Origin: Enterobacteria phage mEp021
DNA length: 54,655 nucleotides
Direction: 5' to 3' (one strand)
Sequence record: MH706966
The first letter of the stretch is position 1, and each line of letters opens with the position of its first letter. A program made the position numbers and the translations under genes. Below, in pieces: positions 6,080-46,524 of the stretch. The notes under the pieces were generated by a model. It had not been told where the DNA came from and searched no databases. It worked only from the letters and a program-made list of their open reading frames with translations.

Positions 6080-6586
6080 TCAGGGTAAAGAAATACCGTG
6101 ATTGCTATGAAAGTTATACATTCTTTCAGCTTCTTTTCTTGCTTTTACGGCATCATCAAATGAGTCACCGTAATAAACGTACATTGTTTTCTTTTTCCCA
6201 TCAGACCCCCTTATACCTATTTGCGCCCGCCATTTATGGGTTTTCTTGTTCCACGTAACGCCAACGCATCCGCTAGTATTACTTGATGGCATTGTTTTGT
6301 TTCTGTTATTCTCCTTCCTTGTCACTATCCTTAAGTTTTCGATTCTATCGTCACCAGGTACATGATTTATGTGATCTATTTCCATTCCATCAGGAATAGG
6401 GCCGTTAAACATTTCCCAGATAATGCGGTGACGCCATGTGCAACAAATACCATTAACGCGTATAGTCCAATATCCGCGATAATGTTTACATCCAGCCACG
6501 CTACCTGCTTTTATTTTGTTATTTGCACGGTTACAAGACCAATATAGAACGCCGTCGCTATATGTAAATAAATCATCCCACATCAT
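6080..6586 (-). CDS. HNH homing endonuclease with AP2-like domain
   Basis: EIDHINHVPGDDRIENLRIVTRKENNRNK HNH motif; start taken at the internal ATGATG (6586) that overlaps the stop of the upstream gene; paralog of 45958-46524. Confidence 0.65.
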   Translation of the reverse strand: MMWDDLFTYSDGVLYWSCNRANNKIKAGSVAGCKHYRGYWTIRVNGICCTWRHRIIWEMFNGPIPDGMEIDHINHVPGDDRIENLRIVTRKENNRNKTMPSSNTSGCVGVTWNKKTHKWRAQIGIRGSDGKKKTMYVYYGDSFDDAVKARKEAERMYNFHSNHGISLP

Positions 6587-7703
6587 GACACCCAACCATT
6601 TCAGGCCTATATACAAAGCGACCAATTTCGCCATAATCAGGGCTGTAAATGATAACCGCCGCGCAACGTTGCGATCTCCAGCCTCCATTAGTTGAATAAG
6701 CGTCTTTTCCCGCTAACGTGCCGTGGTGTTCAACTATGCCTATAGATGATTCTGTTACTGATTTATGGTGCAAATGTCCGACATGGACGTAAACATATTT
6801 CGACTTGCCAAAATCCTCACGCCAGTCAGCTACGCAAGCAGACAATAAATTTTCAGGCTTTTTGATAGTGTGCCCGTGGTGGTAAGCAAGGAATGTTTTT
6901 CCGTACTGTGTGTGGTGGACGATGGCAGGGGACACATCAACCGTCACGCGCGGTTCATCTTCGTAAAAAGCCGCCAGCGCCGCACGTAGCCAGATCATTC
7001 CTGACTGGTCGTGATTGCCGGATAACACCTGGATTTCAACATCCTTATGATTTAATAACATCTTCCCTACCGCCCGCCGGACAGACCGGATCGCTACATA
7101 AACAAGTTTTGCGTAGCGACTATCTTGATCAAGAATGTGCCCGCTTGTTGGTGTCACCGGGACCATACCGTCAGAATGAAGTAGATCGCCACCGAGGAGC
7201 AGTACTGCTTTTTCAGACATAGGAGCAGCGCCAACCGCGTAGTCAAAGAAGTCATTCAACACGCGCTCAGCGATCCCAGTATCGTAGCTCTCACCGCATT
7301 CAGCTTTATGAGCAAGTGCCCCGATATGCAGGTCAAACACCGGATAAAGAGCCAGGCTTTTTTGAAAATCAATTTCCGGCACTGGCACTGCCTCCGCGCG
7401 TGGTATTTCTTCCGTGAATGCGTCGCGGGCGGCTTCCATTAGCCTTTCCATTTCATCGCGATCACGGGCTGTTTTAATCCAGCGCATGACCGTATTACCA
7501 GCCTTATCGACAAGAACAGATTCACCAGTAACGCCAAAACCCGGTGCGCGGCGCGTTGATAATAAACCGCGTTTCGCCAGCTTTGCGCCAAGCCGCTCGA
7601 CGTTGCGTTTTGACATGCCATATTTTTCGGCGATCTGTTTATACGTTAAACCGTTGTTATATTCAGCGATCAATTGCTCATCGCTTATCTTTCTTTGCGA
7701 CAT
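6573..7703 (-). CDS. HTH domain fused to calcineurin-like metallophosphoesterase (Mre11/SbcD or lambda-PPase-like)
   Basis: 376 aa; N-terminal LTYKQIAEKYGMSKRNVERL HTH; phosphoesterase motifs LLGGDLLHSDG, LSGNHDQ, HHGH, HVGHLHH. Confidence 0.6.
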   Translation of the reverse strand: MSQRKISDEQLIAEYNNGLTYKQIAEKYGMSKRNVERLGAKLAKRGLLSTRRAPGFGVTGESVLVDKAGNTVMRWIKTARDRDEMERLMEAARDAFTEEIPRAEAVPVPEIDFQKSLALYPVFDLHIGALAHKAECGESYDTGIAERVLNDFFDYAVGAAPMSEKAVLLLGGDLLHSDGMVPVTPTSGHILDQDSRYAKLVYVAIRSVRRAVGKMLLNHKDVEIQVLSGNHDQSGMIWLRAALAAFYEDEPRVTVDVSPAIVHHTQYGKTFLAYHHGHTIKKPENLLSACVADWREDFGKSKYVYVHVGHLHHKSVTESSIGIVEHHGTLAGKDAYSTNGGWRSQRCAAVIIYSPDYGEIGRFVYRPEMVGCHDVG

Positions 7704-7736
7704 AATGTTACTTCCTCATGTTTACGTTTTGTATAT

Positions 7737-9224
7737 TCATTGGCAGAAAACAATCTCTTTAAATGCTTTTTCTACCATGTCGAATACTTCCGGCCTGTAA
7801 TAGAAAAACTCATTGCTTCCATCAAATTTCACAGGAAAATTGATTTTATAATTACTAAAAGCCTTATGCATCGTGTTTTCTAGTTTATGTATACTTTCGG
7901 TTGGCCCTTCTAACGTTTTCACGACACACAAATCAGGGATTCTAACACCTGCTTTATGTGCGCTTTTTAATATCCGATTTCTTCGCTCGTTCTCCTTAAC
8001 ACTTACGCCGATTTTCATTTGTGTAGGTAATTCCAGATCATCAACCATGATGTAAAGTTTGCCATAATCATAACGAAAGAAACCGTATTTAGCGCATTTT
8101 TGGCAACCCCTACCGCGCTTAAGTTCTCTAGGTCTAACCGACCACTTATGATTACAAACCTTACAGCGGCATGATACTTTTTTATTTACGTTCGTTATTT
8201 CTCCCAGCACTTCAACATCAGGATTAACCTTAGCAATAGCTAAAACATGTTCTTCGTGCGTTATAATCTTCCCAGCACATTTTGGGCAACCCTTCCCGCG
8301 TTTAAGGTTGCTAGGAGTAACCGACCACTTATGATTACAAACCTTACAGCGGCATGATACTTTTTTATCTACGTTCGTTATTTCTCCCAGCACTTCAACA
8401 TCAGGATTAACCTTAGCAATAGCTAAAACATGTTCTTCGTGCGTTATAATCTTCCCAGCACATTTTGGGCAACCCTTACCGCGCTTAAGGTGGTTAGGTC
8501 TAACTGACCATTCATGATCACAAACCTTGCAGCGGCATAATACTTTTTTGTCGCCACCTGTAATTTCACCCAGCACTTCAACATCAGGATTAACCTTCGC
8601 AATGGCAGCAATTTGTTTATAATGTGATAGTCTTAGTTTTTGTGCAATTTTCACACATTTACATTTCGGGCAACCGCTCCCGTGTTTAAGGGCGTCAGGC
8701 GTAGCCGACCATACACGATCACAAATCTTGCAGCGGCATAATACTTTTGTTCTGCTATTAACAATTTTCCCCAGCACTTCAACATCAGGATTAATTCTTG
8801 AGATGGCGGCGATCTGTTCTTCGTGTGATAATCTTTTTGGCCCTTGCTTTAACATTGCGCATTTCGGGCAACCATTCCCGCGTTTAAGGTTGCTAGGAGT
8901 AACCGACCACTCATGATCACAAACCTTGCAGCGGCATAATACTTTTGTGCTGTTATTTATTATTTCCCCCAACACTTCAACATCAGGATTAATTTTAGCA
9001 ATAGCCGCAATTTGTTCTTCGTGGGATAGCCTTGCGTTCCCAGCGCATTTTGGGCAACCTTTACCGTGTTTAAGGTTGCTAGGAGTAACCGACCATTCAT
9101 GATCACAAACCTTGCAGCGGCATAATACTTTTTCCCGGCTTCCAGTAATTTCTCCCATCACTTCAACATCAGGATTAACTTTCGCAATAGCTGCAACCTG
9201 TTCTTCGTGTGTTAGCTTGCACAT
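7737..9224 (-). CDS. Protein with six tandem Zn-ribbon modules and a C-terminal GIY-YIG-like (T5orf172-type) domain
   Basis: 495 aa; six ~55-aa repeats HEEQVAAIAKVNPDVEVLGEI...C.C..C.H.W...P..L..G.GCPKC; C-terminal GKLYIMVDD...KIGVS...RRNRIL pattern; repeats 5 and 6 are near-identical at DNA level. Confidence 0.55.
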   Translation of the reverse strand: MCKLTHEEQVAAIAKVNPDVEVMGEITGSREKVLCRCKVCDHEWSVTPSNLKHGKGCPKCAGNARLSHEEQIAAIAKINPDVEVLGEIINNSTKVLCRCKVCDHEWSVTPSNLKRGNGCPKCAMLKQGPKRLSHEEQIAAISRINPDVEVLGKIVNSRTKVLCRCKICDRVWSATPDALKHGSGCPKCKCVKIAQKLRLSHYKQIAAIAKVNPDVEVLGEITGGDKKVLCRCKVCDHEWSVRPNHLKRGKGCPKCAGKIITHEEHVLAIAKVNPDVEVLGEITNVDKKVSCRCKVCNHKWSVTPSNLKRGKGCPKCAGKIITHEEHVLAIAKVNPDVEVLGEITNVNKKVSCRCKVCNHKWSVRPRELKRGRGCQKCAKYGFFRYDYGKLYIMVDDLELPTQMKIGVSVKENERRNRILKSAHKAGVRIPDLCVVKTLEGPTESIHKLENTMHKAFSNYKINFPVKFDGSNEFFYYRPEVFDMVEKAFKEIVFCQ

Positions 9225-9365
9225 CGTTTCAACTCCTTAAAACGCCTCAGACACTCTACAACGCAAAAACACACCGCGTAATCCACTTGTAATGGTGCAG
9301 TGTCTTTTTTGCGCCAGAATCGCAATCAGGTGGCTAATTTTTTGATTTACAGACTGGTATGAAGG

Positions 9366-9467
9366 TTATGGATTTACTAGAAGGAACAAGCCGCCGAACA
9401 AAGCGACGTTAACAGCGATTGCAGCGGCGATGGCAAAAGCCAGGGCGAAAACGTGTTTACCGTCCAT
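9366..9467 (-). CDS. Small hydrophobic peptide (33 aa, single predicted TM helix)
   Basis: MDGKHVFALAFAIAAAIAVNVALFGGLFLLVNP; SD agagagga upstream; below the ORF-track cut-off. Confidence 0.35.
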   Translation of the reverse strand: MDGKHVFALAFAIAAAIAVNVALFGGLFLLVNP

Positions 9468-9600
9468 TTTAAAATCCTCTCTAAAACGCTCTCTAACGAG
9501 CTAAACCGCTAAAGGTATGCAAGTGTAGCACCCAATGCTTTTTAGCTCGCTTATGGGCTTGTTTTGTTGGTAATTTTTGATTTTTGCGTATTGTGGTTGG

Positions 9601-10608
9601 TCAAATAGCGCCTGCGCGTGTATCGCGTAGCGTTTTTGGTTTAAGCAGGAAATCAAGTGTCGCAGTGAAGCCATTGCCGAAGTAAAAGTCTGAAGCCGTG
9701 TTTTTAAACGCCTCAAAGTAAGCAATAAAGCCAGTGATGCTTTTGTCTTTCAGGTAGTCAGTGAACGCATAGATCTTGCGTTCAAGATCCCGATCCAGTT
9801 CAGCAGGTGGCAACAGGCCATCAAACGTGCTGTTAAATGCTTCCACTACGTCGGCAGCGTTTGCAGTGACTGACAGTTTGCTCCATTGTTCAGCATCAGC
9901 CAGATACCCATCGAATTTAGTTACCCGGCAAATGTTAACAGGCTTAGGCACTCCACCACGGCCACGCCATTGCGTTAAAGCCCACTCAATCACTAATGTG
10001 ATCTCACCCTCCGTATACGCTTTGCGTGTTTTTGTTTCTGTCAGTAGTTCTACGAATGGCTTTGCATCACGACATTTGCATCCTGCCTTGTCGTTGTAGA
10101 AGGACAGGCAACGCAATGCCGCCAGATTAACCTCCCGATCTTCTTCGCTGATAGACTCGTCTTTTTCCAATACACGAAGTGTATTGTTTTTAATGTTCTC
10201 TTTACTGGTTATATATGACTGATTAGGGTTGCTCTCTGCCACTACCCCCGGTTGCTTTGTGCCACTACCCTGGTTGCTCTCTGCCACTACCCCCGGTTGC
10301 TTTGTGCCACTACCTGACAGTGAAGGTAAAACGATTACATAGAAATTGCTCGTTTGTTCTTTCCCTCCTATTAAATATCGAGGCTGTTTTAGTAATAAAC
10401 CTTTTTTGCAAAGAGCCTCGATTGCTCTCATTGCCGTACTTTTGTTTATTTCGCATTGCTTTGCTATGTGCTGGTAAGAAGGGTAGCACTCTCCGTTATC
10501 GTTAGCGTTATCAGCCAACTTTAACAGCACAAGTTTGTGCATTGGGTTGCCGACTTCAGTATGAAAGACTTCAACCATTAGCCGCATACTCATAAGCATT
10601 AACCTCAT
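9601..10608 (-). CDS. Replication initiator, phage O-like
   Basis: N-terminal winged-HTH pattern KLVLLKLADNANDNGECYPSYQHIAKQCEINKSTAMRAIEALCKKGLL; iterons embedded in the coding sequence; true start probably the internal ATG at 10593 with a gaggt SD. Confidence 0.7.
   Translation of the reverse strand: MRLMLMSMRLMVEVFHTEVGNPMHKLVLLKLADNANDNGECYPSYQHIAKQCEINKSTAMRAIEALCKKGLLLKQPRYLIGGKEQTSNFYVIVLPSLSGSGTKQPGVVAESNQGSGTKQPGVVAESNPNQSYITSKENIKNNTLRVLEKDESISEEDREVNLAALRCLSFYNDKAGCKCRDAKPFVELLTETKTRKAYTEGEITLVIEWALTQWRGRGGVPKPVNICRVTKFDGYLADAEQWSKLSVTANAADVVEAFNSTFDGLLPPAELDRDLERKIYAFTDYLKDKSITGFIAYFEAFKNTASDFYFGNGFTATLDFLLKPKTLRDTRAGAI
10227..10314. repeat. Four tandem ~22-bp iterons (ggttgctYtSTgccactaccc), candidate replication origin
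   Basis: Direct repeats at 10227-10249, 10250-10271, 10272-10294, 10295-10314, inside the O-like gene (encoding SGTKQPGVVAESN twice). Confidence 0.6.
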
Positions 10609-10614
10609 GACGAA

Positions 10615-10860
10615 CTAAAACATTAACTGATAAACACAGAAGAAGCCTGGAAGCTGGCTAATCAGGCCGCTTCTTTTCAGTTGATGCAGTGCAGAGATAG
10701 TGTCACGTAACGAAATTTCGCACATTTCCGCGATCTCTTCCGGAGTTACTTCGCTTTTGCCGTTGCATCCGGCCTTTGTTGCCAGTGCAATTAAGATAAG
10801 TTTTTGCACATGATCATTGTTATTCAGGCGAATATCAAAAGCCTTGCGAACGTAATACAT
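10615..10860 (-). CDS. Small winged-helix DNA-binding protein, first gene of the leftward operon (Cro-like by position)
   Basis: 81 aa; KLILIALATKAGCNGKSEVTPEEIAEMCEISLRDTISALHQLKRSGLI resembles the N-terminal domain of the O-like protein; divergent from cI; SD aggaga. Confidence 0.45.
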   Translation of the reverse strand: MYYVRKAFDIRLNNNDHVQKLILIALATKAGCNGKSEVTPEEIAEMCEISLRDTISALHQLKRSGLISQLPGFFCVYQLMF

Positions 10861-11166
10861 GTTTCTTTCTCCTATGGTTAGAGTGAACGCGCGGGCGGGT
10901 ATCCAATTAGCATTAGATAGCAGTGACTGACCGCTGAACAGATCCCGCCGTTGCGTGATATTTGTTTTTCGCTTCGCAGCGACACCGGATTTTTAAAGAG
11001 CTTTTAAGGTATGTACCTTTTGTGCTTTCCCTTATCTTTTTTCTTGCATCATTGCAACTATGGCCTTACCTTGTCAGCAAGTTTACAGAATGGAGCTTTA
11101 AGATCAAGGCTTGAAAAATACGTTTTGTGACTTGCATCAAAATTTTTTAGGTTATAGGGTAGCGAT
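10861..11166. promoter_or_regulatory. Divergent promoter/operator region between the Cro-like gene and cI
   Basis: 306-bp non-coding spacer with a 14-bp palindrome aaggtatgtacctt (11007-11020), an inverted repeat ttgcatcattgcaa (11044-11057) and a second cttgcatca (11129-11137). Individual operators not assigned. Confidence 0.5.
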
Positions 11167-11814
11167 ATGAAAACAAAATGGTATGACTTAGCAAAACAAC
11201 TCATGCGGGCGCAGGGCATGAGCCAGGATTCATTGGCTGATCTTATGGGGATCACAAAAGGCGGCCTTTCTCACTGGCTGAACGGTAGACGTGAGCCAAA
11301 TCTTGAAGATATTGCGCGTATCATGCGGGCGCTTGGGCGTCGGCAGTTCACTGTCACACATGATGGAATGGTCATTGATGATTCTGTTTCTAACACGTTG
11401 CCGGGAGCGCCGCCGCGTGATTTAGGTAGTTACCCGGTTGTTGACTGGAAGGATGTAGTAAACAATATGGAAGATGCAAGGCGATCAACATTACCACACG
11501 TTACGACTAGCGTTATTTGTTCAGATGATAGTTATTGGCTGGTAGCTAAAGGCGAATCAATGAACGCGCCGCAAGGATTGAGTATACCAGCGGGGACGAT
11601 GATACTTGTCGATCCGCACGCGCCAGCTATTGACGGCAAACTGGTTATAGCCCAATTGGAGGAGGGGCAGGTACCGACGTTTAAACAGTTGATTATTGAT
11701 GGAGGTCAAAGACTTTTGCGTTCGCTCAATCCGCTGTATCCGCCAATCCCTATGAATCCAGAATCAAAAATTATAGGCGTGGTGGTTGATGCGAAGATCG
11801 TAAACCTGCCATAA
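11167..11814 (+). CDS. cI: CI-type repressor (HTH plus S24 LexA-like peptidase domain)
   Basis: 215 aa; N-terminal HTH QDSLADLMGITKGGLSHWLNGRREP; C-terminal AKGESM...DGKLVIAQL S24 autocleavage pattern. Confidence 0.85.
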   Translation: MKTKWYDLAKQLMRAQGMSQDSLADLMGITKGGLSHWLNGRREPNLEDIARIMRALGRRQFTVTHDGMVIDDSVSNTLPGAPPRDLGSYPVVDWKDVVNNMEDARRSTLPHVTTSVICSDDSYWLVAKGESMNAPQGLSIPAGTMILVDPHAPAIDGKLVIAQLEEGQVPTFKQLIIDGGQRLLRSLNPLYPPIPMNPESKIIGVVVDAKIVNLP

Positions 11815-11818
11815 ACAT

Positions 11819-11845
11819 TAGCCGCCGGATGGCGGCTTTTCTTTG
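11819..11845 (+). terminator. Rho-independent terminator after cI
   Basis: Hairpin gccgcc-ggat-ggcggc followed by ttttctttg. Confidence 0.7.
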
Positions 11846-12223
11846 CCGTAAAAACACCAAAACGTAAACAGAAAACATGTTTTATCATTTAAATATCAAT
11901 GAGATAGAAAATTTTTTAAAAAAGTATACAAAATGGATTGACTCTGTATATCACGGGGCGTATATTGCGAATCAAAGGAAGGAGGCAGGAAACAAAAAAG
12001 CACCTTCCAGGCACTTTAAAAAATCAGGCTTAACACCTTGTCAACCGTGGAGTAACTCCCCGATGGGGGACCGAAAGCGGCACTGATAACAAGGCGCATG
12101 GGGTGTTTAAAGCGTTACACCCCCCACGAAACCGCACGCAAGGCGACGAGTCAGCTTGCTTGGAGTGAGCAAGGTCACACCGGAAACGGCGATGATTGCG
12201 GGATTAGTTGAAAGATGTTAAGC

Positions 12224-12261
12224 CGCTCATTAACAATCTGGTCAGCCGCTGGAAGTGCGGC
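12224..12261 (+). promoter_or_regulatory. nutL-like site: boxA-like cgctcattaacaa plus boxB-like hairpin gccgc-tggaagt-gcggc
   Basis: Matches the boxA consensus cgctctttaacaa at 11 of 13 positions; hairpin 8 nt downstream; lies just upstream of the N-like gene. Confidence 0.45.
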
Positions 12262-12317
12262 AATTAACGAAGATGATTTTTTATTAAGTATCATCAAGGA
12301 TATAAGGAGATCAGATC

Positions 12318-12608
12318 ATGACAGTTACAATCATGTATGGCAAATGTGACAGTAAACTGAATGCCAGGGAACGCAGAAGAATAAAAAGAGAAAACGAAAG
12401 AAAATCATCACCTGCAATTAATAAAACGGACAATGTGGATAAAGCCATTCGCTTTGCAAACGAGGAAAGATGCAAACCCAATGGCATTAAAGAACGTCGC
12501 AAAGGAGCGGTAAAATGGTATACGGAAAATGAAAGCGGCAACTACTACCACGCAACGCAACCACGCCAGTTAGGGGAAAAACCCCTTGATAAAGTCCGCT
12601 ACCATTAA
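12318..12608 (+). CDS. N-like transcription antiterminator (arginine-rich motif protein)
   Basis: 96 aa; N-terminus MTVTIMYGKCDSKLNARERRRIKRENERK resembles the P22 gene 24 / lambda N arginine-rich RNA-binding motif as recalled; SD aaggaga. Confidence 0.55.
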   Translation: MTVTIMYGKCDSKLNARERRRIKRENERKSSPAINKTDNVDKAIRFANEERCKPNGIKERRKGAVKWYTENESGNYYHATQPRQLGEKPLDKVRYH

Positions 12609-12638
12609 TACAAAATGTAAATAATCGGAGGTGACATT

Positions 12639-12761
12639 ATGGTTATCGAGGCGCTCAAATTCAAACTTGCGGTAGCGGAAATGCTTCATGATGCCGAAAT
12701 GTGGAGCGCCGCGAATAAAGCCTTATACGTAGTGTTAACAGCGAAGGAGATCAAAGAGTGA
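12639..12761 (+). CDS. Hypothetical small protein (40 aa)
   Basis: Strong SD ggaggtga; stop overlaps the erf start. Confidence 0.35.
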   Translation: MVIEALKFKLAVAEMLHDAEMWSAANKALYVVLTAKEIKE

Positions 12762-13809: not shown

Positions 13810-13838
13810 CGAATATAATCAATTAGTTAGGTGTTATT

Positions 13839-14628: not shown

Positions 14629-14642
14629 TGAGGTATTAAATC

Positions 14643-14867: not shown

Positions 14868-14977
14868 ACCTTGCAAAAATTGCCGCATTGCTTGCGGCTT
14901 TGTCTATCGCTGTGCTGTATCTCAGCGTATCGCTTTATATAACGGTAGCGATCATTAAACTCATTGCTAACATGTGA
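14864..14977 (+). CDS. Small membrane peptide (37 aa)
   Basis: MNLAKIAALLAALSIAVLYLSVSLYITVAIIKLIANM; ATGA overlap with the upstream stop; SD ggaggg. Confidence 0.45.
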   Translation: MNLAKIAALLAALSIAVLYLSVSLYITVAIIKLIANM

Positions 14978-14985
14978 GGTTAATC

Positions 14986-37725: not shown

Positions 37726-40071
37726 ATGTCCACCAGTTTAGGTACAATTTATTACGAAGTTGATGCAAAAACTGGTCAACTTCTAGTCGCTCAGAGACAG
37801 GCGGATCAGGCTTTTGACAGTATCGAGCGTGGCGCAAAACGCGCTGACCGCCAGGTTAACACGCTTAAAACTTCAATCAAAGCACTATCCAGGGTTATAC
37901 ATCTGCTACTTGCTGCGGAGGCTGTGCGCCAGTTTATTGACATGGCGGAGCAAGCAAAAATGCTTCGTGTCAAAATTAAAATGCTCACAGGTGACGCAGA
38001 GGCCGCAGGACGTGTTTTTGACGGCCTGAAAAAAATATCAAAGGAAACCGGGCAAAGCCTTAAAGACACTGGCGAATTGTGGCAAGGCCTGGCTATTTCA
38101 CTAAAGAATACTTCCGCTACGGAAGGCCAATTGCTCAACCTGGTTGGCACTATTCAGAAGATGGGGGCGTTAGGAGGCGCGTCAGCGGAACAGATGTCTA
38201 ATTCTATGCGCCAGTTCCGCCAGTCTATAGACGGCGGCGTGCTGCGTGCTGAAGAGTTTAACAGCCTGTTAGAGAACACGCCGACCATCGTACAGACAAT
38301 GGCCCGCCATATGGGGTTGTCAATGGGCCAGTTCCGCGCCGAAATGCTGGACGGCAAGATCACGGCTGAAAGGATGGTTAACGCGATTCAGGCAGCTACA
38401 CAGGAAACAAACGAGAAGTTTGCACAGTTGCCGCGCACGTCCGGCAAGGCTATCAATGAGCTTAAAGTTGAGGTGATGGGGCTTGTCGAACAACTTGACG
38501 ATCTTTTCGGCATATCAGATGGCGTTGTATCAGCTATCGACTTAATAACTGGCGGCGTTGAGGGATTAGGTAAAGGCGCTAAATTCGCCGCAACCTGTTT
38601 TAATACACTCAAAACGGCTGGCAGTGAGTTCATAGACATGTTTGACGACGTGGCTGTTAAGGCTGGCGAGGTGGCGGAAGAAATCATTAGAATGGTAACG
38701 CCAATCAAGGCGCTAATGGATGGCTACAAATGGATGAAGGAGATTGTAGGAAAGCAAACAGAAGAATATAACACCAATTATGAGAAGAAATACGGTAAAA
38801 GACTTGGTAAGGGAATGCAATTTTGGGATGATTGGCAGGCCGTACTTAACCAAACAAAAGAAAACAAGGGAACCGACACCGCTGACGACGGCAAGATCAC
38901 CGGATTCGAGCCACCAGTAGATAAGCCAGGAAAACCGAAAAAAGGAAAAAAAGACAAGAAATCTGAAGCTGATCGGCTTGGTGATGAAGGTATAAAAGTG
39001 TCCGACCAGTACAACAAGGACGCCGCCGCTATGCGCAAAGCATTAGAGAACGGCAAGGCCATTGATGCTGCATTCGCCCAGGGCAAAATCACCCTCCTTG
39101 AGTACAAGGCCGCGCAAAAGGGGATAGGCAAGGAACTGAAGGACGAATTGGCACAAATCCCGGTGGAAGAATTGCAAGATAAATGGGCGCACATAGTAAG
39201 CCCAATGGATCAGCTTAAGGGCGAAATTGACCCAATCAAACAGGCGCAGAATGAGTGGGCTGTCAGAAAACAAATGCTATTAGACCTGGGAGCTACAGAA
39301 GCGCAACAGAGACAGGCGCAGTTAGAATATGAGCAACAGATCAGGGATCTGAAGTGGGAGCAATGGCAGGCGCAAAGCGACACAAACAGCCTGATTGGTG
39401 CTTGTGTTAGCGGCCTCAAGGGTGGCATGGGTAATGCGCTTACTGGCCTGTTAAACGGTACTCAATCATTAAGCGAGGTTTTTGCCAACCTGGGAAGCAG
39501 CATACTTAACACCGTAGGCAATAAACTTTCGGAAATAGCCGCTAACTGGATAGCAGATCAATTGATGATGGAAACGCAAAGCAAGGCTACACAGGCAAGT
39601 ACAGCGGCTGGCGCTGTGGCAGCGCAGGGCGAGATTGCTGCGGCAGCGGCCCCGGCAGCGGCTGCGACGGCGGCATCAACTGGCGGTAGCTGGGCGGCGG
39701 CTGGTGCTGCGGCGCTTTCTGCTATCATGTCGCTGGCAACGTCAATTTTTGGCGGCGGTCGTTATAATGGTGGTTCTGTGAATGGTGGCAGTCTGTATCG
39801 CGTAGGGGAACACGGAATACCGGAGCTATTCCAGACGAGCAACGGGCGTCAGTATATGATTCCTGGGGAAAATGGCAGGGTTATTCCTGGCCGCGATCTT
39901 TTCAGTGGTGGCAGCATCAGTATGCCTGTTAACATTACCGTTCAGACCACAAACGGGTTTAGCGAAGAGGACAGTCGCAGATTGCAAGACGCCATGAAAC
40001 GCGTTGCAATGGGAGTAATTAAAGAGCAAAGTTCAAGGCCCGGAGGTCTTATCCAACCACGAAGAAAATAA
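37726..40071 (+). CDS. Tail tape measure protein
   Basis: 781 aa; helical N-terminal two-thirds, glycine/alanine-rich segment, position in the tail module; SD gaggt. Confidence 0.85.
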   Translation: MSTSLGTIYYEVDAKTGQLLVAQRQADQAFDSIERGAKRADRQVNTLKTSIKALSRVIHLLLAAEAVRQFIDMAEQAKMLRVKIKMLTGDAEAAGRVFDGLKKISKETGQSLKDTGELWQGLAISLKNTSATEGQLLNLVGTIQKMGALGGASAEQMSNSMRQFRQSIDGGVLRAEEFNSLLENTPTIVQTMARHMGLSMGQFRAEMLDGKITAERMVNAIQAATQETNEKFAQLPRTSGKAINELKVEVMGLVEQLDDLFGISDGVVSAIDLITGGVEGLGKGAKFAATCFNTLKTAGSEFIDMFDDVAVKAGEVAEEIIRMVTPIKALMDGYKWMKEIVGKQTEEYNTNYEKKYGKRLGKGMQFWDDWQAVLNQTKENKGTDTADDGKITGFEPPVDKPGKPKKGKKDKKSEADRLGDEGIKVSDQYNKDAAAMRKALENGKAIDAAFAQGKITLLEYKAAQKGIGKELKDELAQIPVEELQDKWAHIVSPMDQLKGEIDPIKQAQNEWAVRKQMLLDLGATEAQQRQAQLEYEQQIRDLKWEQWQAQSDTNSLIGACVSGLKGGMGNALTGLLNGTQSLSEVFANLGSSILNTVGNKLSEIAANWIADQLMMETQSKATQASTAAGAVAAQGEIAAAAAPAAAATAASTGGSWAAAGAAALSAIMSLATSIFGGGRYNGGSVNGGSLYRVGEHGIPELFQTSNGRQYMIPGENGRVIPGRDLFSGGSISMPVNITVQTTNGFSEEDSRRLQDAMKRVAMGVIKEQSSRPGGLIQPRRK

Positions 40072-40126
40072 TTTATTGATTTAATCTTACGCCCGCAAGA
40101 TAATGACGTATCCTTGCGGGCTTTGC

Positions 40127-41461
40127 TTACGCGGCTTTTATAATTTCTTTATACTTATCTTCCACCATGTTAAAAACCTCTGGTCTGTAGTAGAAAAATT
40201 CGCAACTACCATCAAATTTTACTGGGAAGTTAATTTTGTAATTATTAAGGGTTTTGTGTATCGCGCCTTCTAGTTCATAGATATTTTGTGTCGGACCTTC
40301 TAATGTTTTTACGATATGCAAATCAGGAATCGTTACACCCGCTTTATGTGCGCTACTTAGTATTCTATTTCTTCGTTCGTTTTCCTTAACACTTACCCCT
40401 ACTTTCATTAGCGTTGGTACTTCCAGATCGTCAACCATGATATAAAGTTTGCCGCGTTCGTAGGATAAAAAACCCTTTTTAGCACATTTAGAACAGCCGC
40501 TACCTTCCTTAAGTTTTTGCGGCGTGGTTCGCCACTTATAACCACACACTTTACATAAACACGATACTTTGTTTTTATTCCCTGTTATTTTACCTACCAC
40601 TTTGATATTAGGGTTGATGTTGGCAATGGCTTTTACTTGCTCATCATGTGATATTCTTCGTGCTTGCGATCCTTTTCGTTTCGCACACTTCGGGCAACCA
40701 GTACCTTTTTTAAGGCTGGCTGGAGTAGTTAACCACTCATGACTGCAAGACTTACAGCGGCATAACGTTCTCGTAGTATTGTTAATAATTTTTTCTAATA
40801 CCTCAACGCTAGGACTGGTTTTCGCAATAACTGCAATTTGTTCTTCATGTGATAGTTTGGTGTGTCCGCTACATTTCGGGCAGCCAGTACCATGCTTGAT
40901 GTTGTTGGGAGTTGCTGGCCATTCATGATTGCAAATCTTACATTTGCATAATACTTTTTTTAAACTCGCAGATTAAAAGGGGTTTTATTCAATATTGCTG
41001 TTAACCTTCGCAATAGCTGCAACTTGTTCTTCATGCGTTAATCTTCTATCTGCGCATTTTGGGCAACCTTGCCCGATTTTAAGTGTTTCAGGTCTAGCCA
41101 ACCATTCATGATCACAAACTTTGCAATGGCATAATACCTTTGTTTTATTATTAATAATTACCCCTAACACCTTAATATCAGGATTAACTTTAGCAATAAT
41201 TGCAACCTGTTCTTCGTGTGGTAATGCCCGTTTTTGTGCTCTTTTTAACGCCGCACATTTAGGGCAACCAACACCGCGCTTAAGATCAGCAGGTCTACCA
41301 AACCATTCGTGATTACAAGTTTTGCAGCAGCATGATACTTTTTCCATATTCCCGGTAATTACCCCTATCACCTCGATATTGGGGTTAACTTTTGCAATAG
41401 CGGCAACTTGTTCTTCGTGTGTTAATTTTTTTGTCATAATACCGCTCCTACAATCTTCCAT
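40127..41461 (-). pseudogene. Disrupted paralog of the Zn-ribbon/GIY-YIG-like gene at 7737-9224
   Basis: A single reading frame of about 445 codons carries about five Zn-ribbon modules and an intact C-terminal GIY-YIG-like domain but is interrupted by two in-frame TAA stops (+ strand 40985-40987 and 40973-40975). Confidence 0.55.
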
Positions 41462-41547
41462 TCCGTCCTACATAACTCCTGCCGAACATTACCAACCAGA
41501 TGCTCCAGATCTCCCGCCATGTGTATTTCTCATTCTTCATACCCGCC

Positions 41548-41802
41548 TCACTTATGAGCGCCTTTTACGCCACATAACTTGTTATAAAAATGGTGCTCAA
41601 CGATTAACCAAACCCTCAGATCTTCACTGAACAGCCGCCAATCAGGATTAATGTCAAACTTCCAGCCATAACCATCGCGTAACTTTTTGGGGTTGGCCTC
41701 TTTCTTCAGGAAAGCATTTAATAAGGCTTTTCCCTTTTTGATGATCCGGTCCTGTGCGTTTTTCTGTGCTTTCAGGTTTTTACCAATCGCCACCAATTTC
41801 AT
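41548..41802 (-). CDS. Small protein (84 aa), possibly RelE/YafQ-like toxin fold
   Basis: Lysine-rich N-terminal helices then GYGWKFDINPDWRLFSEDLRVWLIVEHHFYNKL, loosely resembling the YafQ PDW-L-Y pattern from memory; SD gcggggtgg. Confidence 0.3.
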   Translation of the reverse strand: MKLVAIGKNLKAQKNAQDRIIKKGKALLNAFLKKEANPKKLRDGYGWKFDINPDWRLFSEDLRVWLIVEHHFYNKLCGVKGAHK

Positions 41803-41820
41803 AATCCACCCCGCAATCAA

Positions 41821-41976
41821 TTAGTTGACCACTTTCAGGAAGAAATCACAGTATTCATCTTCTTTTGCATTCATCATGAACTGACCGTATTTGAATGCGT
41901 CATCAAAGCCTTTTACAATCGCCACTTCCACCTGTTCGAATGCGTTGTTCAGCATTACCACTACATAGCGTTTCAT
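41821..41976 (-). CDS. Small protein (51 aa), upstream partner of the 84-aa gene
   Basis: MKRYVVVMLNNAFEQVEVAIVKGFDDAFKYGQFMMNAKEDEYCDFFLKVVN; strong SD aaaggagggg 4 nt upstream of the ATG. Confidence 0.4.
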   Translation of the reverse strand: MKRYVVVMLNNAFEQVEVAIVKGFDDAFKYGQFMMNAKEDEYCDFFLKVVN

Positions 41977-42146
41977 GATGCCCCTCCTTTGTTGGTACTG
42001 CTTTCTCTTCTTGCCTCCTATATACATCTTGTTACGTCATGTGTGAAGCCATTTTGTAAACTGGGTATAATTCTTGTGACGAAGTTCTCATTTTTCGCGT
42101 AGAAGCGCGTAAAGATGTATGCAATATGTAACTTATAGGGGGAATC

Positions 42147-42500
42147 ATGCCTGAAGTTTTCAGATGGACGCCGCAAAGAAGCTACAGCGTGACCAGGGAA
42201 CCAAATGTGTCGGTCGTTAAACTTGGTGATGGTTATGAACAGCGCCAGGCTAAAGGGATTAACACGTTGCTTGATAGCTACACCCTGGTTTTTAAAGGCA
42301 GTAGCGCAGGATGCGGTGATAGTGGGAACGTGGCGATCCAGGCAGAAGCATTCTTGAGGGCGCGCGGCGCTGTCGAGGCTTTTTACTGGTCGCCGTCTAT
42401 GGATGGTGTGCAAAGGCTTTTTGTTTGCCGTAGCTGGAGTATGACAAAGGACGGGCCTGTATACACGCTAAACGCAACATTTGAGCAAGTTGTCAGTTAG
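42147..42500 (+). CDS. M: Minor tail protein M
   Basis: 117 aa; size and position as lambda gpM, immediately before gpL-like; SD taggggga. Confidence 0.65.
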   Translation: MPEVFRWTPQRSYSVTREPNVSVVKLGDGYEQRQAKGINTLLDSYTLVFKGSSAGCGDSGNVAIQAEAFLRARGAVEAFYWSPSMDGVQRLFVCRSWSMTKDGPVYTLNATFEQVVS

Positions 42501-42697
42501 TGGGGGTTAATATGTACGGGACTTGTGTAGTGGACAAAACTGACGCTTTTACATTGTTTGACGACTACGAGATCAACGACCTTACTGTAAAGGCTGACAA
42601 TGGCGATACATGGTATCTTCATGATGTTGGTGATGGTTATGTGGGATGCAGATCCAGAGAAGGCAAGGAGGTTTTATTTTTGGTTGATGGCGTATAA
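42500..42697 (+). CDS. Hypothetical protein (65 aa)
   Basis: ORF overlapping the gpM stop. Confidence 0.35.
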   Translation: MGVNMYGTCVVDKTDAFTLFDDYEINDLTVKADNGDTWYLHDVGDGYVGCRSREGKEVLFLVDGV

Positions 42698-42876
42698 TAA
42701 CAACCCCGCTTCGCGCGGGGTTTTCTTGTCAGTAGTTAATGTACATCAAACTCATTGGGTGAGCGTGCGCCATATTATTGGCTATCGCCGCCCAGTCCCA
42801 ATCGGCAGCATGAACGCCAAATACTATCAGTCCCATTATTATTAGCGCCAAAACTTCTATTTTCATAATCTGTCAC

Positions 42877-43191
42877 CTATAAGTTATCACGCAGGTAATT
42901 AACGCCCTTATCAGTGACGAATGAATGGTTTACCTGGTTTTCATCCGTCATGATGATGAATAACTTTTCCTGTAGGTATTTCGCTTTCGGGTACAGTGTT
43001 AAACAGACCTGGTACAGTATCCCGCGCTCAATCAGCAAATCAATAAATTCGTGCTCATGATAACCGATAAGGCGGGCGGCCTGTTTCAACGTGTACACAT
43101 AGTCACCGTGATTACGCCGTGCCATGATTTTATTCTCACATATCAAAAAATAGCATGTCAGGTATAAAAGTATCGCCGCAAGAATTTCCAT
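42877..43191 (-). CDS. Hypothetical protein, possible HTH DNA-binding protein (start ambiguous)
   Basis: YTLKQAARLIGYHEHEFIDLLIERGIL HTH-like segment; alternative start at 43125. Confidence 0.4.
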   Translation of the reverse strand: MEILAAILLYLTCYFLICENKIMARRNHGDYVYTLKQAARLIGYHEHEFIDLLIERGILYQVCLTLYPKAKYLQEKLFIIMTDENQVNHSFVTDKGVNYLRDNL

Positions 43192-43369
43192 ATCCTTTTA
43201 CCGTACTACCATCAATATCAATCACTGTGAGCGGCACAAAATTTAAACAGTCATCGACAGTGAAACGGCTGCCAGAAGGTGTAATGAATAATGGGTATCT
43301 ATTTTTTATATTAAAATCATCATTTTTGTTAGATGTAACAACGAGTTTGATAACACCTATCATCTTCAT
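43136..43369 (-). CDS. Hypothetical protein (77 aa)
   Basis: ORF in the opposite-strand island. Confidence 0.35.
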   Translation of the reverse strand: MKMIGVIKLVVTSNKNDDFNIKNRYPLFITPSGSRFTVDDCLNFVPLTVIDIDGSTVKGYGNSCGDTFIPDMLFFDM

Positions 43370-43384
43370 ATATCGGCCTACACT

Positions 43385-43738
43385 TTATTTGCCATTAAAA
43401 CAGCCCAGGTTATCTATGCAGAAGTCTTTTGCCGCTTTTTCGTATTCGCGTTTTGCTTCCGGATCGTCAGCTGGAAAACCTTTTGCGTGTATTTCTCCAG
43501 GGCAAGATTGATCCATAGAATCAGCAAATTCAACATTGACGTTAAAGTTAATATCTTTCGGGTTCATCTCTTCCACCTTATCCGGTACTTGGACCGGAGT
43601 AATATCAAAATCACGATAGTTAAACCCACAGCGAAGTAATTCACGACCTTCATCACGCGCCGCAGCATATGTGTCAAATAGGCCCATGCGTTCCCATCCG
43701 CATTTATTAGTAAACACGTCTAAACTGTATTTTTGCAT
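43385..43738 (-). CDS. Hypothetical protein (117 aa)
   Basis: ORF in the opposite-strand island. Confidence 0.45.
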   Translation of the reverse strand: MQKYSLDVFTNKCGWERMGLFDTYAAARDEGRELLRCGFNYRDFDITPVQVPDKVEEMNPKDINFNVNVEFADSMDQSCPGEIHAKGFPADDPEAKREYEKAAKDFCIDNLGCFNGK

Positions 43739-43750
43739 TTTGTTAACCTC

Positions 43751-43981
43751 TCATTTGACGGGTTCGATCTCGTACCCCAAAACGCGTTCGTCTTCAGCAA
43801 GTAAAAGCGCGTCAACCAGCGCATCGCCTTCATCTTTATACAGGGCCACAAGCATTTCCCTGCCATCAGCCAGGAACACCGTCAACCTCCACACCTTATC
43901 ATCCATCGCACACCTCCGCGCCATTTTGTTAACCCTGCTTCCTTTTGAGTACAATATACATATTGTAAAAAGCGCTATCAA
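43751..43981 (-). CDS. Hypothetical protein (57-76 aa)
   Basis: First gene of the opposite-strand island; acidic. Confidence 0.35.
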   Translation of the reverse strand: MIALFTICILYSKGSRVNKMARRCAMDDKVWRLTVFLADGREMLVALYKDEGDALVDALLLAEDERVLGYEIEPVK

Positions 43982-44033
43982 CCGTTTTGGTATGATTTAG
44001 CGTGACGTAGATCACAAATTGCAAGGTGATAAA

Positions 44034-44738
44034 ATGCGCAGCATACCTACAGAAATGATTATTGATTCCGTGGATGCCGGAGTCGGCGCGGTAATTGACT
44101 TGTTTGAATTAGACCTCACGCCCCTGGGTGGCGAGGTTATCCGCTTCCATTCCGGCGCGAATGGCTATTACGGCCCGGTTATCTGGAAGGGGGTGGCCTA
44201 CAACAGCTACCCAATCGAGGCGACTGGCTTCGAAATGAAAAACGAAGGCGTTTACTCACGCCCACAAATGGTAGTAGCCAACATCGGCGGGCTAATCACC
44301 GGGATGAATAACGATTTTAACGACCTGCGAGGAATGAAGGTTACGCGCCGCCAGGTGGAGGTAAAATACCTGGACGCCGTTAATTTCCCCAACGGCAACC
44401 CGGATGCAGATCCATCTATTGAGGCTGTGTCTTTTTACGTCGTTGAAGCGATGAGTGAAGAAACAGCCGACCAGGTGCAATATGAACTGTCAACGCCAAT
44501 TGATGCTGATAAGGCGGTTATCCCTGGGCGCACAATTCTCGCTGACGTTTGCCAGTGGCAATATCGCGGCGACGGTTGCGGATACAGTGGCGGCCCTGTA
44601 GCTACAGATAAAGACGAATCGACCAGCGATCCAAAACTGGATAGATGCAGCCACCGCCTGAGCGGTTGCCGTTTGCGTTTTCCGCGCCCCAACCCGTTAC
44701 CAATTTCCTGTTTCCCGGGATCAAGCAAGGTGGGTTGA
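44034..44738 (+). CDS. L: Minor tail protein L
   Basis: Closely parallels lambda gpL as recalled, including the C-terminal Cys cluster CQWQYRGDGCGYSG...CSHRLSGC; SD aaggtg. Confidence 0.85.
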   Translation: MRSIPTEMIIDSVDAGVGAVIDLFELDLTPLGGEVIRFHSGANGYYGPVIWKGVAYNSYPIEATGFEMKNEGVYSRPQMVVANIGGLITGMNNDFNDLRGMKVTRRQVEVKYLDAVNFPNGNPDADPSIEAVSFYVVEAMSEETADQVQYELSTPIDADKAVIPGRTILADVCQWQYRGDGCGYSGGPVATDKDESTSDPKLDRCSHRLSGCRLRFPRPNPLPISCFPGSSKVG

Positions 44739-44740
44739 TT

Positions 44741-45472
44741 ATGGCGCTTGAAGATAAAATGATTCGCTATGCCGCAGCACACCCGGAAGAGGAGGTGTGC
44801 GGGCTGGTGATAGATAACGATTATTTTTACCCGTGCTTAAACGTGTCTGAAACGCCGCACAACAGCTTTAAAATATCGCCTGACGATTATATCAAAGCTG
44901 ACGAATTAGGCGTTATAACCGCCGTTTTTCACTCCCATACTGACAATTCGTTGATATTGTCAGCACGGGATCGACAACAGCAGGTTATTTCCGGCCTGCC
45001 GTGGTATTTGTGTTCCGGCGGCAGGGTTAGAAAGTTCCGCCCGGTGGCGCACCTGTTGGGCCGTAAATTTGAACACGGTAAAACAGATTGTTACTCGCTT
45101 TTCCGTGACGCATATCACCTATGCGGCGTGGATCTGCCCGACTTTGAGCGCCACGATGGGTGGTGGCTGCGTGGGGAAAACCTGTACATAAAAAACCTGC
45201 CATTGAACGGGTTTTTCATGGTTGACGCGCAAAGCATTCAGCCAGGTGATGTGATTATTCGCCAGCCTTTTAAAGGCGCTGACCCATGTCACGCGATGAT
45301 TTACCTGGGCGATAACACCGTTTTGCATCATGACAATGCCGGACTGTTAAGCCGCCGCGAGCAAATGCGGCCAGCTTATGTTAGGCAAACGCATTCAATA
45401 TGGAGATCTGACAAATGCTCAAATTTAGATTTACGGGCAATCTTCGAAGATATTACGGCAAGGTGTGTTTAA
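44741..45472 (+). CDS. K: Tail assembly protein K (JAB/MPN plus NlpC/P60-like domains)
   Basis: Closely parallels lambda gpK as recalled (EEVCGLV, HSH, FEHGKTDCYSLFRDAYHL). Confidence 0.85.
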   Translation: MALEDKMIRYAAAHPEEEVCGLVIDNDYFYPCLNVSETPHNSFKISPDDYIKADELGVITAVFHSHTDNSLILSARDRQQQVISGLPWYLCSGGRVRKFRPVAHLLGRKFEHGKTDCYSLFRDAYHLCGVDLPDFERHDGWWLRGENLYIKNLPLNGFFMVDAQSIQPGDVIIRQPFKGADPCHAMIYLGDNTVLHHDNAGLLSRREQMRPAYVRQTHSIWRSDKCSNLDLRAIFEDITARCV

Positions 45473-45945
45473 ACGTTGATACGCCAGCGCAGGGACTTCG
45501 CTTATTGACCGCACAGAATCAGGAGTTCAAGAAGGCTTTTTTAAACACCCCATTGCGCTTGCGAATTGCCGGAAAAGATTACGACGAAAAGACCGCACCC
45601 GCAGCGGTTAACAGTAAATACCAGGATGGTACTACCGTCATTGTTGCGCCAGTGGTGGAAGGCGGTATTGCAGGGATTGGCGTTGTAGGCTGGATTTTGA
45701 TCGGTGTTTCGGTTGTTAGCGTTGCGTTCTCAAGAGTTGTGTCACGCAACATGAAGATAAAAACATCAGCAGAAAGCGCACAAGATAACACCATATCTAA
45801 CAACACATACACCAGCGTTGAAAACAAGGTTGGCCAGGGTAGACCAGTGCCGATCCTGTTGGGTGAAATGAAAATAGGTTCAAACGTCGGATCGTTAGGC
45901 ATAGACACAAGTAATAACAAAGACGCCTTAGACGTTGTAAGTTAA
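45415..45945 (+). CDS. I: Tail assembly protein I
   Basis: 176 aa; N-terminal ubiquitin-like region and C-terminal glycine-rich hydrophobic segment as in lambda gpI; overlaps the gpK end. Confidence 0.7.
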   Translation: MLKFRFTGNLRRYYGKVCLNVDTPAQGLRLLTAQNQEFKKAFLNTPLRLRIAGKDYDEKTAPAAVNSKYQDGTTVIVAPVVEGGIAGIGVVGWILIGVSVVSVAFSRVVSRNMKIKTSAESAQDNTISNNTYTSVENKVGQGRPVPILLGEMKIGSNVGSLGIDTSNNKDALDVVS

Positions 45946-45957
45946 TAGGGGGTTACA

Positions 45958-46524
45958 GTGAACTGGTCTGAATTGTTTGTTTATGATGAAGATTCTCCTT
46001 CATGTTTAAGGTGGAAAGTCACCGCTAACAGCAGAACGGCGAGGACTGGCGATGCGGCAGGAAAAATAGTAGCGGCAAAAAGCGGCAATAAGTACTGGAA
46101 AATCACATGGAAGGGCCGTCGCTATTATGCTCACCGGATTGTTTACGAATTATGCAGTGGCAGAAAATTAAAACGCAGTGAGATCATCGATCACATTGAT
46201 GGTAATGGGCTTAATAATAAATTCAATAACATACGCGTAACAGATAAAAAAGGTAACGCCAGAAATATGACCATAGGTCGCGCGACAAGGGAGAGCGGAT
46301 TGCCATTTGGGATATGTTGGCACGCAGAAGGGAGATCTATTAGAGCACGTATCACCGCTGATAACGACAAAAGAGTTAGTAAATCATTTAGCGTTATAGC
46401 GTGCGGTGGACTTGAAATGGCTATTAATGCCGCCGTCGCGTGGCGGTCATTCATGATTGAAGAGCTAAATAAAGCTGGCGCAGGATACACGAAATTACAC
46501 GAAACAGGGGGTTTATATGTCTAG
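45958..46524 (+). CDS. HNH homing endonuclease with AP2-like domain, inserted between I and J
   Basis: 188 aa; SEIIDHIDGNGLNNKFNNIRVTDKKGNARN HNH motif; GTG start with SD aggggg; paralog of 6080-6586. Confidence 0.7.
   Translation: MNWSELFVYDEDSPSCLRWKVTANSRTARTGDAAGKIVAAKSGNKYWKITWKGRRYYAHRIVYELCSGRKLKRSEIIDHIDGNGLNNKFNNIRVTDKKGNARNMTIGRATRESGLPFGICWHAEGRSIRARITADNDKRVSKSFSVIACGGLEMAINAAVAWRSFMIEELNKAGAGYTKLHETGGLYV

Follow-up and report, generated by a model that had tools for sequence, protein, structure and literature searches.

Two freestanding HNH endonuclease genes of the temperate coliphage mEp021 lie in small cassettes that were probably spread by homing

The 54,655-nucleotide (nt) sequence of Enterobacteria phage mEp021 (record MH706966), which in its whole length is called the window below, carries two freestanding genes for HNH-type endonucleases, HNH-1 in the replication arm and HNH-2 between the tail genes I and J. 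From comparisons of sequence, we consider it likely that both are intact homing endonuclease genes (HEGs) encoding an I-HmuI-like HNH nuclease with an AP2-like domain, that they were acquired independently, and that each resides within a small cassette spread by homing. Alleles and genomes with and without the respective gene are termed HEG+ and HEG-less. The window looks like the complete genome of a temperate coliphage of the mEpimmI group (described in PMC11893012) because the linear genome of Escherichia phage mEp515 is collinear with it from base 1, with offsets of 2–20 nt at both loci; an initial annotation had taken it for a prophage, and this was not borne out. The identity between the window and mEp515 is 99.9% over 44000–48500 and 96.6% over the matched part (68%) of 4000–10700. 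The related phages compared throughout are mEp515, mEp010, mEp013, mEp044, mEp554 and MagusPhagus.

The two HNH genes and their products

The two genes and the neighbour of HNH-1 were defined from open reading frames (ORFs) and Pfam matches as follows (aa, amino acids).

6080–6586, minus strand: HNH-1, freestanding HNH_3 and AP2-like endonuclease gene, 168 aa, beginning MMWDDLF; located between the 376-aa exonuclease-like gene (6573–7703) and a DnaB-type helicase gene (4630–6045)
6573–7703, minus strand: 376-aa helix-turn-helix and metallophosphoesterase-like gene adjoining HNH-1, called 'DNA repair exonuclease' in relatives
45958–46524, plus strand: HNH-2, freestanding HNH_3 and AP2-like endonuclease gene, 188 aa, GTG start; located in the I-J spacer of the tail operon

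The HNH-type genes that the initial annotation had recognized at these positions were confirmed as intact ORFs, and both products match the HNH_3 profile above its curated cut-off of 24.8 bits (HNH-1, E=2.1e-21, 75.7 bits; HNH-2, E=1.6e-9, 37.7 bits). The ORF of HNH-1 is open further, to 6688, and we placed its start at 6586 or 6583 because the relatives begin M(x)W(D/E)(D/E)LF. This start overlaps the stop of the upstream 376-aa gene, one orthologue of which carries the RefSeq name 'metallophosphoesterase family protein', by 14 nt. The GTG start of HNH-2 is located 12 nt past the stop of gene I (45415–45945), and its stop overlaps the start of the tail-tip gene J (46517; J spans 46517–51700) by 8 nt (ATGTCTAG). 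The position between I and J and the 8-nt overlap had thus been described exactly, whereas the statement that HNH-2 splits the I-J tail genes holds only for its location, since no gene is split and the insertion occupies the intergenic spacer. HNH-1 and HNH-2 are 27% identical over their whole length (E=2e-11), and a search of the window for a third HNH copy found none.

The catalytic residues are retained in both proteins. In the phmmer alignment of HNH-2 with I-HmuI (1u3e), which spans the HNH motif, the equivalents of D74, H75 and N96 are in place, and in a collinear alignment of 22 family members, including both window HNH proteins, the residues H59 (the histidine of HRIV), D78, H79, N91, N100 and N103 are invariant in 22 of 22. 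The top PDB sequence match of HNH-2 was a designed kelch repeat protein with six weak repeats, which we regard as spurious, leaving the I-HmuI match as the meaningful one; a PDB sequence search with HNH-1 returned nothing at E<=1. The AP2 profile matches 17 of the 22 aligned members (best E=2.6e-19). An AlphaFold (AF2) model of HNH-2, built on the family alignment (predicted local distance difference test score, pLDDT, 87; predicted template modelling score, pTM, 0.75), contains an N-terminal beta region, a nuclease core, and a C-terminal three-stranded sheet with a long helix. Its C-terminal strands (119–122, 127–133 and 139–145) and the following helix (152–172) have the beta-beta-beta-alpha order of the AP2 type. 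The top Foldseek match of the model in the PDB was I-HmuI (1u3e_M; probability 0.99, E=1.2e-3), with a template modelling (TM) score of only 0.31–0.34 because the protein is elongated and multi-domain. The AP2 matches in the 17 members support an HNH plus AP2-like architecture of the family, and for HNH-2 the model adds support from predicted structure.

The ratio of non-synonymous to synonymous substitution rates (dN/dS) was 0.08 for HNH-1 against the mEp010 copy, and 0.17 and 0.06 for HNH-2 against relatives of 83% and 71% identity, respectively. By these estimates, both genes are under purifying selection.

Presence and absence at the two sites

The initial annotation had proposed a presence/absence comparison at the two loci, and an insertion polymorphism was found at both rather than conservation at fixed positions in all relatives. 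Among the compared phages, the I-J site is HEG+ only in the window and mEp515; in the other five (mEp010, mEp013, mEp044, mEp554 and MagusPhagus) it is empty, with I and J 13–14 nt apart. HNH-2 was found at I-J in 0 of the 31 E. coli prophages that span the junction (out of 5,426 complete genomes), and in none of the IMG/VR contigs, 35 of which have the common empty junction and one a second empty type. The replication-arm site is HEG+ in the window, mEp515, mEp010 and two IMG/VR contigs, and empty in mEp013, mEp044, mEp554 and MagusPhagus, which have 18 nt in place of HNH-1. Here again, none of the 31 E. coli prophages that span the site has the gene, nor do 37 of the IMG/VR contigs. The two HEGs assort independently, as mEp010 and contig L075/L055 carry HNH-1 without HNH-2.

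The HNH-1 insertion and the exonuclease segment inherited with it

Alignments of the replication-arm locus delimited the following features.

6089–6609, minus strand: insertion of 521 nt that is missing in HEG-less alleles
6609–6801, minus strand: 3' segment of the exonuclease-like gene co-inherited with HNH-1, about 190 nt, with the GHLHH motif region and a replaced C-terminus
6064–6088, minus strand: relic (…TTACCCTGAATTTTCCATTTTGTAA), the 3' end that the exonuclease-like gene originally had, downstream of the insertion

The relic matches without a difference the 3' end, stop codon included, of the exonuclease-like gene in HEG-less phages, and it is from the relic (…TTACCCTGAATTTTCCATTTTGTAA) that the last codons and the stop of HNH-1 are now read. 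The exonuclease-like gene ends with …GRFVYYPEFSIL and the stop in empty alleles and with …GRFVYRPEMVGCHDVG and the stop in HEG+ alleles, where the start of HNH-1 (ATGATG) is located inside the new gene end; the C-terminus of the protein is RPEMVGCHDVG in the HEG+ segment versus YPEFSIL.

The alteration extends beyond the gene end. The 3' segment of the exonuclease-like gene, which includes the GH(L/W)HH motif, exists in two versions that match HEG status exactly, with a sharp switch right at the end of GGCAAGTC (window ~6801). The identity of this segment is 93–98% among HEG+ genomes (four of the five compared) and 87.5–92% among four empty genomes, versus 70–77% between HEG+ and empty genomes. 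HEG+ and empty genomes mix over the 900 nt upstream and over the helicase gene, where the nearest neighbours of HEG+ genomes are HEG-less; mEp010, for instance, is closest to the HEG-less mEp044 on both sides of the HNH-1 cassette. The HEG-type exonuclease segment without the HEG occurred in 0 of 35 E. coli prophages. By these alignments the HNH-1 cassette corresponds to window ~6089–6801, and its segment 6609–6801 is predicted to contain the target or immunity region of HNH-1.

The HNH-2 insertion and the J segment inherited with it

At the I-J site, we assigned three features.

45946–45957, plus strand: left junction TAGGGGGTTACA, the ribosome-binding site now serving HNH-2
46505–46516, plus strand: right junction CAGGGGGTTTAT, an imperfect repeat of the left junction that forms part of the HNH-2 3' end and serves J as ribosome-binding site
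46517–46641, plus strand: first ~125 nt of J, encoding MSSGGGKAKTP…SEGPI, co-inherited with HNH-2; a breakpoint recurs at its 3' edge

The junctions are common to 8 of 8 E. coli-type HEG+ loci, which comprise three HEG lineages of 71–92% identity: the left one reads TAA-TAGGGGGTTAC(AG/TA)TG and the right one …CAGGGGGTTTAT-ATGTCTAGTGG. Two empty alleles were distinguished. The common one (type A) reads TAA-CAGGAGAAAAGCC-ATGAGTAGC; the rarer one (type B) reads TAA-TAGGGGGTTA(C/T)T-ATG GGC GGC, so that J begins MGGGGGK, and comes from an E. coli KKa019 prophage (L028, 1147–1170) and from IMGVR_UViG_2778260992_000008 (L038, 5208–5250). The ribosome-binding sequence of HNH-2 in HEG+ alleles, TAGGGGGTTACA, is found unchanged in type B, here directly before the start codon of J and serving J (in L038, TAA-TAGGGGGTTACT-ATG GGC GGC, with J starting at the ATG). 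A single IMG/VR contig that matched the HEG+ left junction, and was considered as a carrier, proved to have such an empty type B site. The simplest reading of these alleles is that the HEG entered a type B-like allele at the start of J and that a ~15-nt duplication re-created the J start; type B is probably either the kind of allele first entered by the HEG or a product of HEG loss.

Three comparisons place a joint within J. Between the window and mEp010 there are 0 differences in the last 206 nt of I, 30 in the 125 nt at the 5' end of J, mostly synonymous, and then none until nt 174; the J mismatch is 24% in the first 125 nt versus 8.4% further on (Fisher p=2e-5). The contigs L013 and L015 have the same HEG; they show no difference in I, in the HEG or in J nt 1–110, and diverge beyond. 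L015 and the window, in turn, have 29 mismatches in J nt 1–125 and one in nt 126–318. These patterns therefore point to a recombination joint at J nt ~110–126, right after the conserved SEGPI-coding stretch, and the HNH-2 cassette would correspond to window ~45946–46641.

Several candidate explanations around these segments were rejected or set aside. Type B empty alleles were considered as the donor of the J 5' segment, which is no closer to type B than to type A. G-run or GC-rich junction motifs (GGCGGCGG at the J start, GGGGG in the spacers) as AP2 binding sites remained speculation, the motif being present in HEG+ and HEG-less alleles alike. Guanine-cytosine (GC) content as evidence of foreign origin (HNH-1 39.6%, exonuclease 3' segment 44%, flanks ~50%) was dropped because the low GC content of the J 5' segment (34%) is undiagnostic, all alleles there, HEG-less ones too, having 35–45%.

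Each gene belongs to a lineage with its own site

The relatives of HNH-2 are located between I and J in 7 of 7 cases checked (48–92% identity, including 83, 71, 60, 57, 55 and 48%; the 92% cluster P0001 was not located), in prophages of E. coli, Salmonella enterica, Atlantibacter hermannii and Cronobacter, and also in metagenomic contigs. In the phage collection, the best match of HNH-2 after mEp515 is merely 38%. A relative of 41% identity is not at I-J: it is carried by an unrelated metagenomic phage (L036, an 86.5-kb contig of JGI 3300008450; 1968–3576), where it overlaps a 348-aa gene at the end of the latter; this neighbour, with a faint Metallophos match, is of the same kind as that of HNH-1.

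The closest relatives of HNH-1 outside the mEp phages (61–65%) are in T1-like virulent phages of the Drexlerviridae, namely ACG-M12, AHP42 and contig L029. They are located directly after an exonuclease-like homologue that is 56% identical in full length to the 376-aa protein, and this site is also polymorphic, some of these phages having the exonuclease followed by polynucleotide kinase (PNK) without an HNH gene. Direct import of the HEG+ exonuclease segment from Drexlerviridae was considered; with just 3–4 of ~70 residues closer to them than in the HEG-less version, the evidence is suggestive but too weak for such a claim. A 48% relative of HNH-1 was observed beside ninE in the nin region of lambdoid prophages (L033, Logan SRR23237994 contig, 918–2073; L032, Enterobacter asburiae prophage, 3501–4192). 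One nin-region contig has a second HNH_3 and AP2 gene across ninE, so that two HEG-like genes flank a 56-aa gene.

Because each gene has far closer relatives elsewhere, tied to its own neighbour gene, the comparisons indicate that HNH-1 and HNH-2 were acquired separately and not duplicated within the genome. The term paralogous, used for them in the initial annotation, is appropriate at the family level, where the two align end to end, but not in the sense of a duplication.

A description of I-J and exonuclease-3' site-specific clades was not found in the literature searched. We offer as a tentative proposal, possible but rather doubtful, that the HEGs define hitherto undescribed, site-dedicated lineages acting as conduits of gene flow, one clade at I-J in the lambda-type tail modules of Enterobacteriaceae and one at the exonuclease 3' end in Drexlerviridae and mEpimmI phages. 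If this is true, the mobile unit of the I-J clade includes the 5' end of the host-range gene J, and a joint ~125 nt into J would therefore be created repeatedly; for the exonuclease-3' clade, a target gene common to virulent Drexlerviridae and temperate mEpimmI phages would have allowed exchange between them by way of the HEG.

Homing and its alternatives

The features of the two cassettes correspond to the recognized signature of freestanding HEGs that cut a conserved neighbour gene at a distance. In the mechanism that we propose, a HEG+ and a HEG-less genome would meet in a mixed infection or a phage-prophage encounter, and the enzyme would bind through its N-terminal sheet and AP2-like domain and nick or cut the HEG-less allele in conserved coding sequence beside the empty site. 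The predicted cut of HNH-1 is in the exonuclease-like gene near the GH(W)HH-coding region, and that of HNH-2 at J nt ~110–130, in the SEGPI-coding region. Repair would then use the HEG+ genome as template and copy the HEG along with everything between the cut and the point of insertion. By analogy with enzymes of the I-HmuI type, the damage may consist of a nick. The co-inherited segment is proposed to be a diverged version of the target, and the carrier would for this reason be protected from its own enzyme. Expression would be by translational coupling, HNH-1 in the early operon and HNH-2 in the late tail operon; in the operon wiring, HNH-1 starts before the exonuclease-like gene has ended, and the 3' end of HNH-2 contains the start codon of J together with its ribosome-binding site. 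The view of the initial annotation that these are homing endonucleases is upheld by the insertion polymorphism, the co-inherited segments, the site fidelity and the conserved catalytic residues, while nuclease activity, the location of the cleavage sites, and homing as nuclease-driven rather than passive spread are what we infer from sequence.

Several observations weigh against this interpretation. The AP2 match of HNH-1 (E=5.7e-5, 23.8 bits) is under the curated cut-off of 33.3 bits, and HNH-2 itself has no AP2 match at E<=0.1; with both window proteins below Pfam's own threshold, we infer the AP2-like domain from their relatives and from the predicted structure. The HNH-AP2 type named in the initial annotation accordingly stands with HNH_3 in both proteins and AP2 in the family and structure, but not with an AP2 detection of its own in either protein. 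The J 5' segments of the three HNH-2 lineages are ~25% apart, a distance equal to that from the empty alleles; no donor was found for this segment, and it may in part result from a constraint on translation initiation of J that has relaxed or changed. The synonymous divergence (dS) between the window and L013 is 0.70 for the HEG and 0.43–0.70 for the flanks, which fits long vertical co-inheritance. HEG+ alleles are rare, at 0–5% of sampled relatives, unlike an efficient drive at equilibrium, and the single immunity type common to all phages of the mEpimmI group restricts productive co-infection of lysogens. Mosaicism is high, and ordinary homologous recombination could move a small cassette unaided by a nuclease. 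The only paper known to us on the mEpimmI group (PMC11893012) nowhere mentions homing or HNH.

Some of these points suit an explanation in which the two genes are passive accessory genes ('morons') that were inserted once by illegitimate recombination and then moved by general homologous recombination, the nuclease perhaps being inactive on phage DNA. We keep this as an improbable alternative, because carriers are rare, the phages are pervasively mosaic in the flanks, the J donor is missing, and the HEG and its flanks have similar dS in one pair. An inert ORF, however, would not retain all catalytic residues and a dN/dS of 0.06–0.17 across synonymously saturated lineages; nor does passive movement explain why each clade stays beside one neighbour gene across phage families that are unrelated and hosts of four genera, or why breakpoints recur at distances of ~125 nt and ~190 nt. 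The same evidence for an active site-specific nuclease that suggests homing would also suit nucleases retained for the benefit of the phage, which degrade or exclude related competitors, resident prophages or satellites (marker exclusion, inter-phage warfare) with gene conversion as a by-product. The putative targets belong to two genes of close competitors, an essential tail gene and a gene of the replication module. HEG-related domains have been co-opted in phage-satellite conflicts (PMC10448857), and both HNH genes are present in virion-isolated phages of one faecal collection and in 0 of 31 prophages of complete E. coli genomes. Exclusion and homing are not mutually exclusive and cannot be separated by sequence; however, cassette structure and insertion scars are specifically products of gene conversion, and HNH-1-positive contigs derived from prophages are present in IMG/VR, so that we give exclusion as the main role a low probability.

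A far slighter chance is left for an essential phage function, such as help for terminase in DNA packaging, the role of HNH proteins in HK97-like phages, or a factor for J in tail assembly or regulation. HNH proteins are required for DNA packaging in some siphophages, and HNH-2 is located in the tail operon with a translational link to J. Neither HNH gene adjoins the terminase genes, and we exclude an essential role because the viable isolated phages mEp013, mEp044, mEp554 and MagusPhagus, as well as dozens of prophages, are without both genes. Homing of two cassettes stays our preferred interpretation.

Zinc-ribbon genes and an observation on gene K

Two further genes of the window carry domains related to mobile nucleases.

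7737–9224, minus strand: zinc-ribbon repeat (DUF4379/CapR) and T5orf172/MUG113 (GIY-YIG-related) gene, 495 aa, intact (Pfam)
40127–41461, minus strand: second zinc-ribbon and T5orf172 gene, 59% identical to the first, with two in-frame stops; its slot is variable among relatives

The 7737–9224 product has about six CapR/DUF4379 repeats, and its matches to T5orf172 (22.3 bits; cut-off 20) and MUG113 (23.2 bits; cut-off 22.3) are above the curated thresholds (DUF4379, 124.7 bits; CapR, 96.6 bits). Its slot holds a 247-aa gene in mEp515 and mEp554, a 178-aa gene in mEp013, two other genes in mEp044 and nothing in mEp010 and MagusPhagus, a third polymorphism of presence/absence, and of repeat number, in the replication arm. 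The orthologue of the second gene in mEp013 is intact with 436 aa, whereas in the window its stops are within a ~21-nt stretch (E-stop-NPF-stop-S) around 40965–40990. The gene-strand stretch TAAAACCCCTTTTAATCTGCG is the base-by-base complement (not the reverse complement) of ATCTTGGGAAAAATTACTTCA in mEp013 at 14 of the first 16 positions. This match is not what ordinary mutation produces and may reflect chance, an assembly or editing artefact, or template switching. The four putative selfish nuclease genes counted in the initial annotation all exist, but because of the two in-frame stops in 40127–41461 they amount to three intact genes and one disrupted gene.

Separately, the homologue of tail gene K (JAB and NlpC/P60; 44645–45472) overlaps gene L (44019–44738) by 94 nt with the ATG as called. 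The records of mEp phages have the same, tentative start; in related prophages the gene is elsewhere annotated from ~45 codons further on (243 aa).

Comparison with known systems

Freestanding HEGs are well known in virulent phages such as T4, T5, SPO1 and ICP1, and to our knowledge they are much less documented in temperate coliphages. The HNH-AP2 homing endonuclease family was reportedly described by Magnani et al. in 2004. The window proteins share with it, and with the 'IPA-HNH' HEGs, an N-terminal HNH nuclease and, as far as their relatives and the HNH-2 model indicate, a C-terminal AP2 DNA-binding domain, and they are likewise freestanding in phages; they differ in their weak AP2 signal and in that the carriers here are temperate E. 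coli siphophages. In ICP1-like phages, the freestanding IPA-HNH HEGs adjoin genes that are conserved or essential and are found where exchanged segments meet (Barth et al. 2023, PMC10448857), a placement that HNH-1 and HNH-2 share. The IPA-HNH domains are too divergent for HNH_3, whereas both window proteins match HNH_3 directly.

The nuclease core resembles I-HmuI, I-HmuII, I-BasI and I-TwoI (HNH_3; structure 1U3E), with the same HNH_3 catalytic motif and conserved Asp-His…Asn, and also in the elongated multi-domain layout with an N-terminal beta-sheet region ahead of the nuclease core. By this analogy, HNH-1 and HNH-2 are probably strand-specific nickases. I-HmuI-type enzymes are encoded in group I introns and have a helix-turn-helix end, whereas the window genes are freestanding and intron-less with an AP2-like beta-beta-beta-alpha end, and the sequence identity between I-HmuI and the window proteins is only ~16%.

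In genetic behaviour the closest parallels are SegB, SegG and MobE of T4 and F-CphI of cyanophage S-PM2 (PMC2790892, PMC2330249, PMC6083498). Those genes are also freestanding between conserved genes with presence/absence variation, and their transfer unit also reaches into the adjacent gene, consistent with cleavage distant from the insertion point. Their cleavage sites and over-transmission were reportedly measured, whereas for HNH-1 and HNH-2 they are deduced, and the nuclease families partly differ (Seg, GIY-YIG; F-CphI, Endo VII-like). The genes at 7737–9224 and 40127–41461 have the same architecture as T5orf172 HEGs with CapR-type repeats (Barth et al. 2023, PMC10448857) and are in variable slots too, the 40127–41461 copy differing in its disruption by stops.

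The present analysis adds precise boundaries of the cassettes, a reconstruction of how both insertions arose, two clades dedicated to their sites (one common to virulent T1-like and temperate mEpimmI phages) and concrete predictions of cleavage sites. If our interpretation is true, the two cassettes account for two 'flexible' genes of the mEpimmI group, and recombination joints are fixed at two places, one within a gene of the replication module and one where the host-range gene J begins. The HNH cassettes constitute no new kind of system and leave the known workings of such elements unchanged; because phages with and without each HEG occur naturally in a single collection on E. coli K-12, they offer two cheap and well-defined experimental systems for studying homing in temperate phages and the target specificity of HNH-AP2 enzymes.

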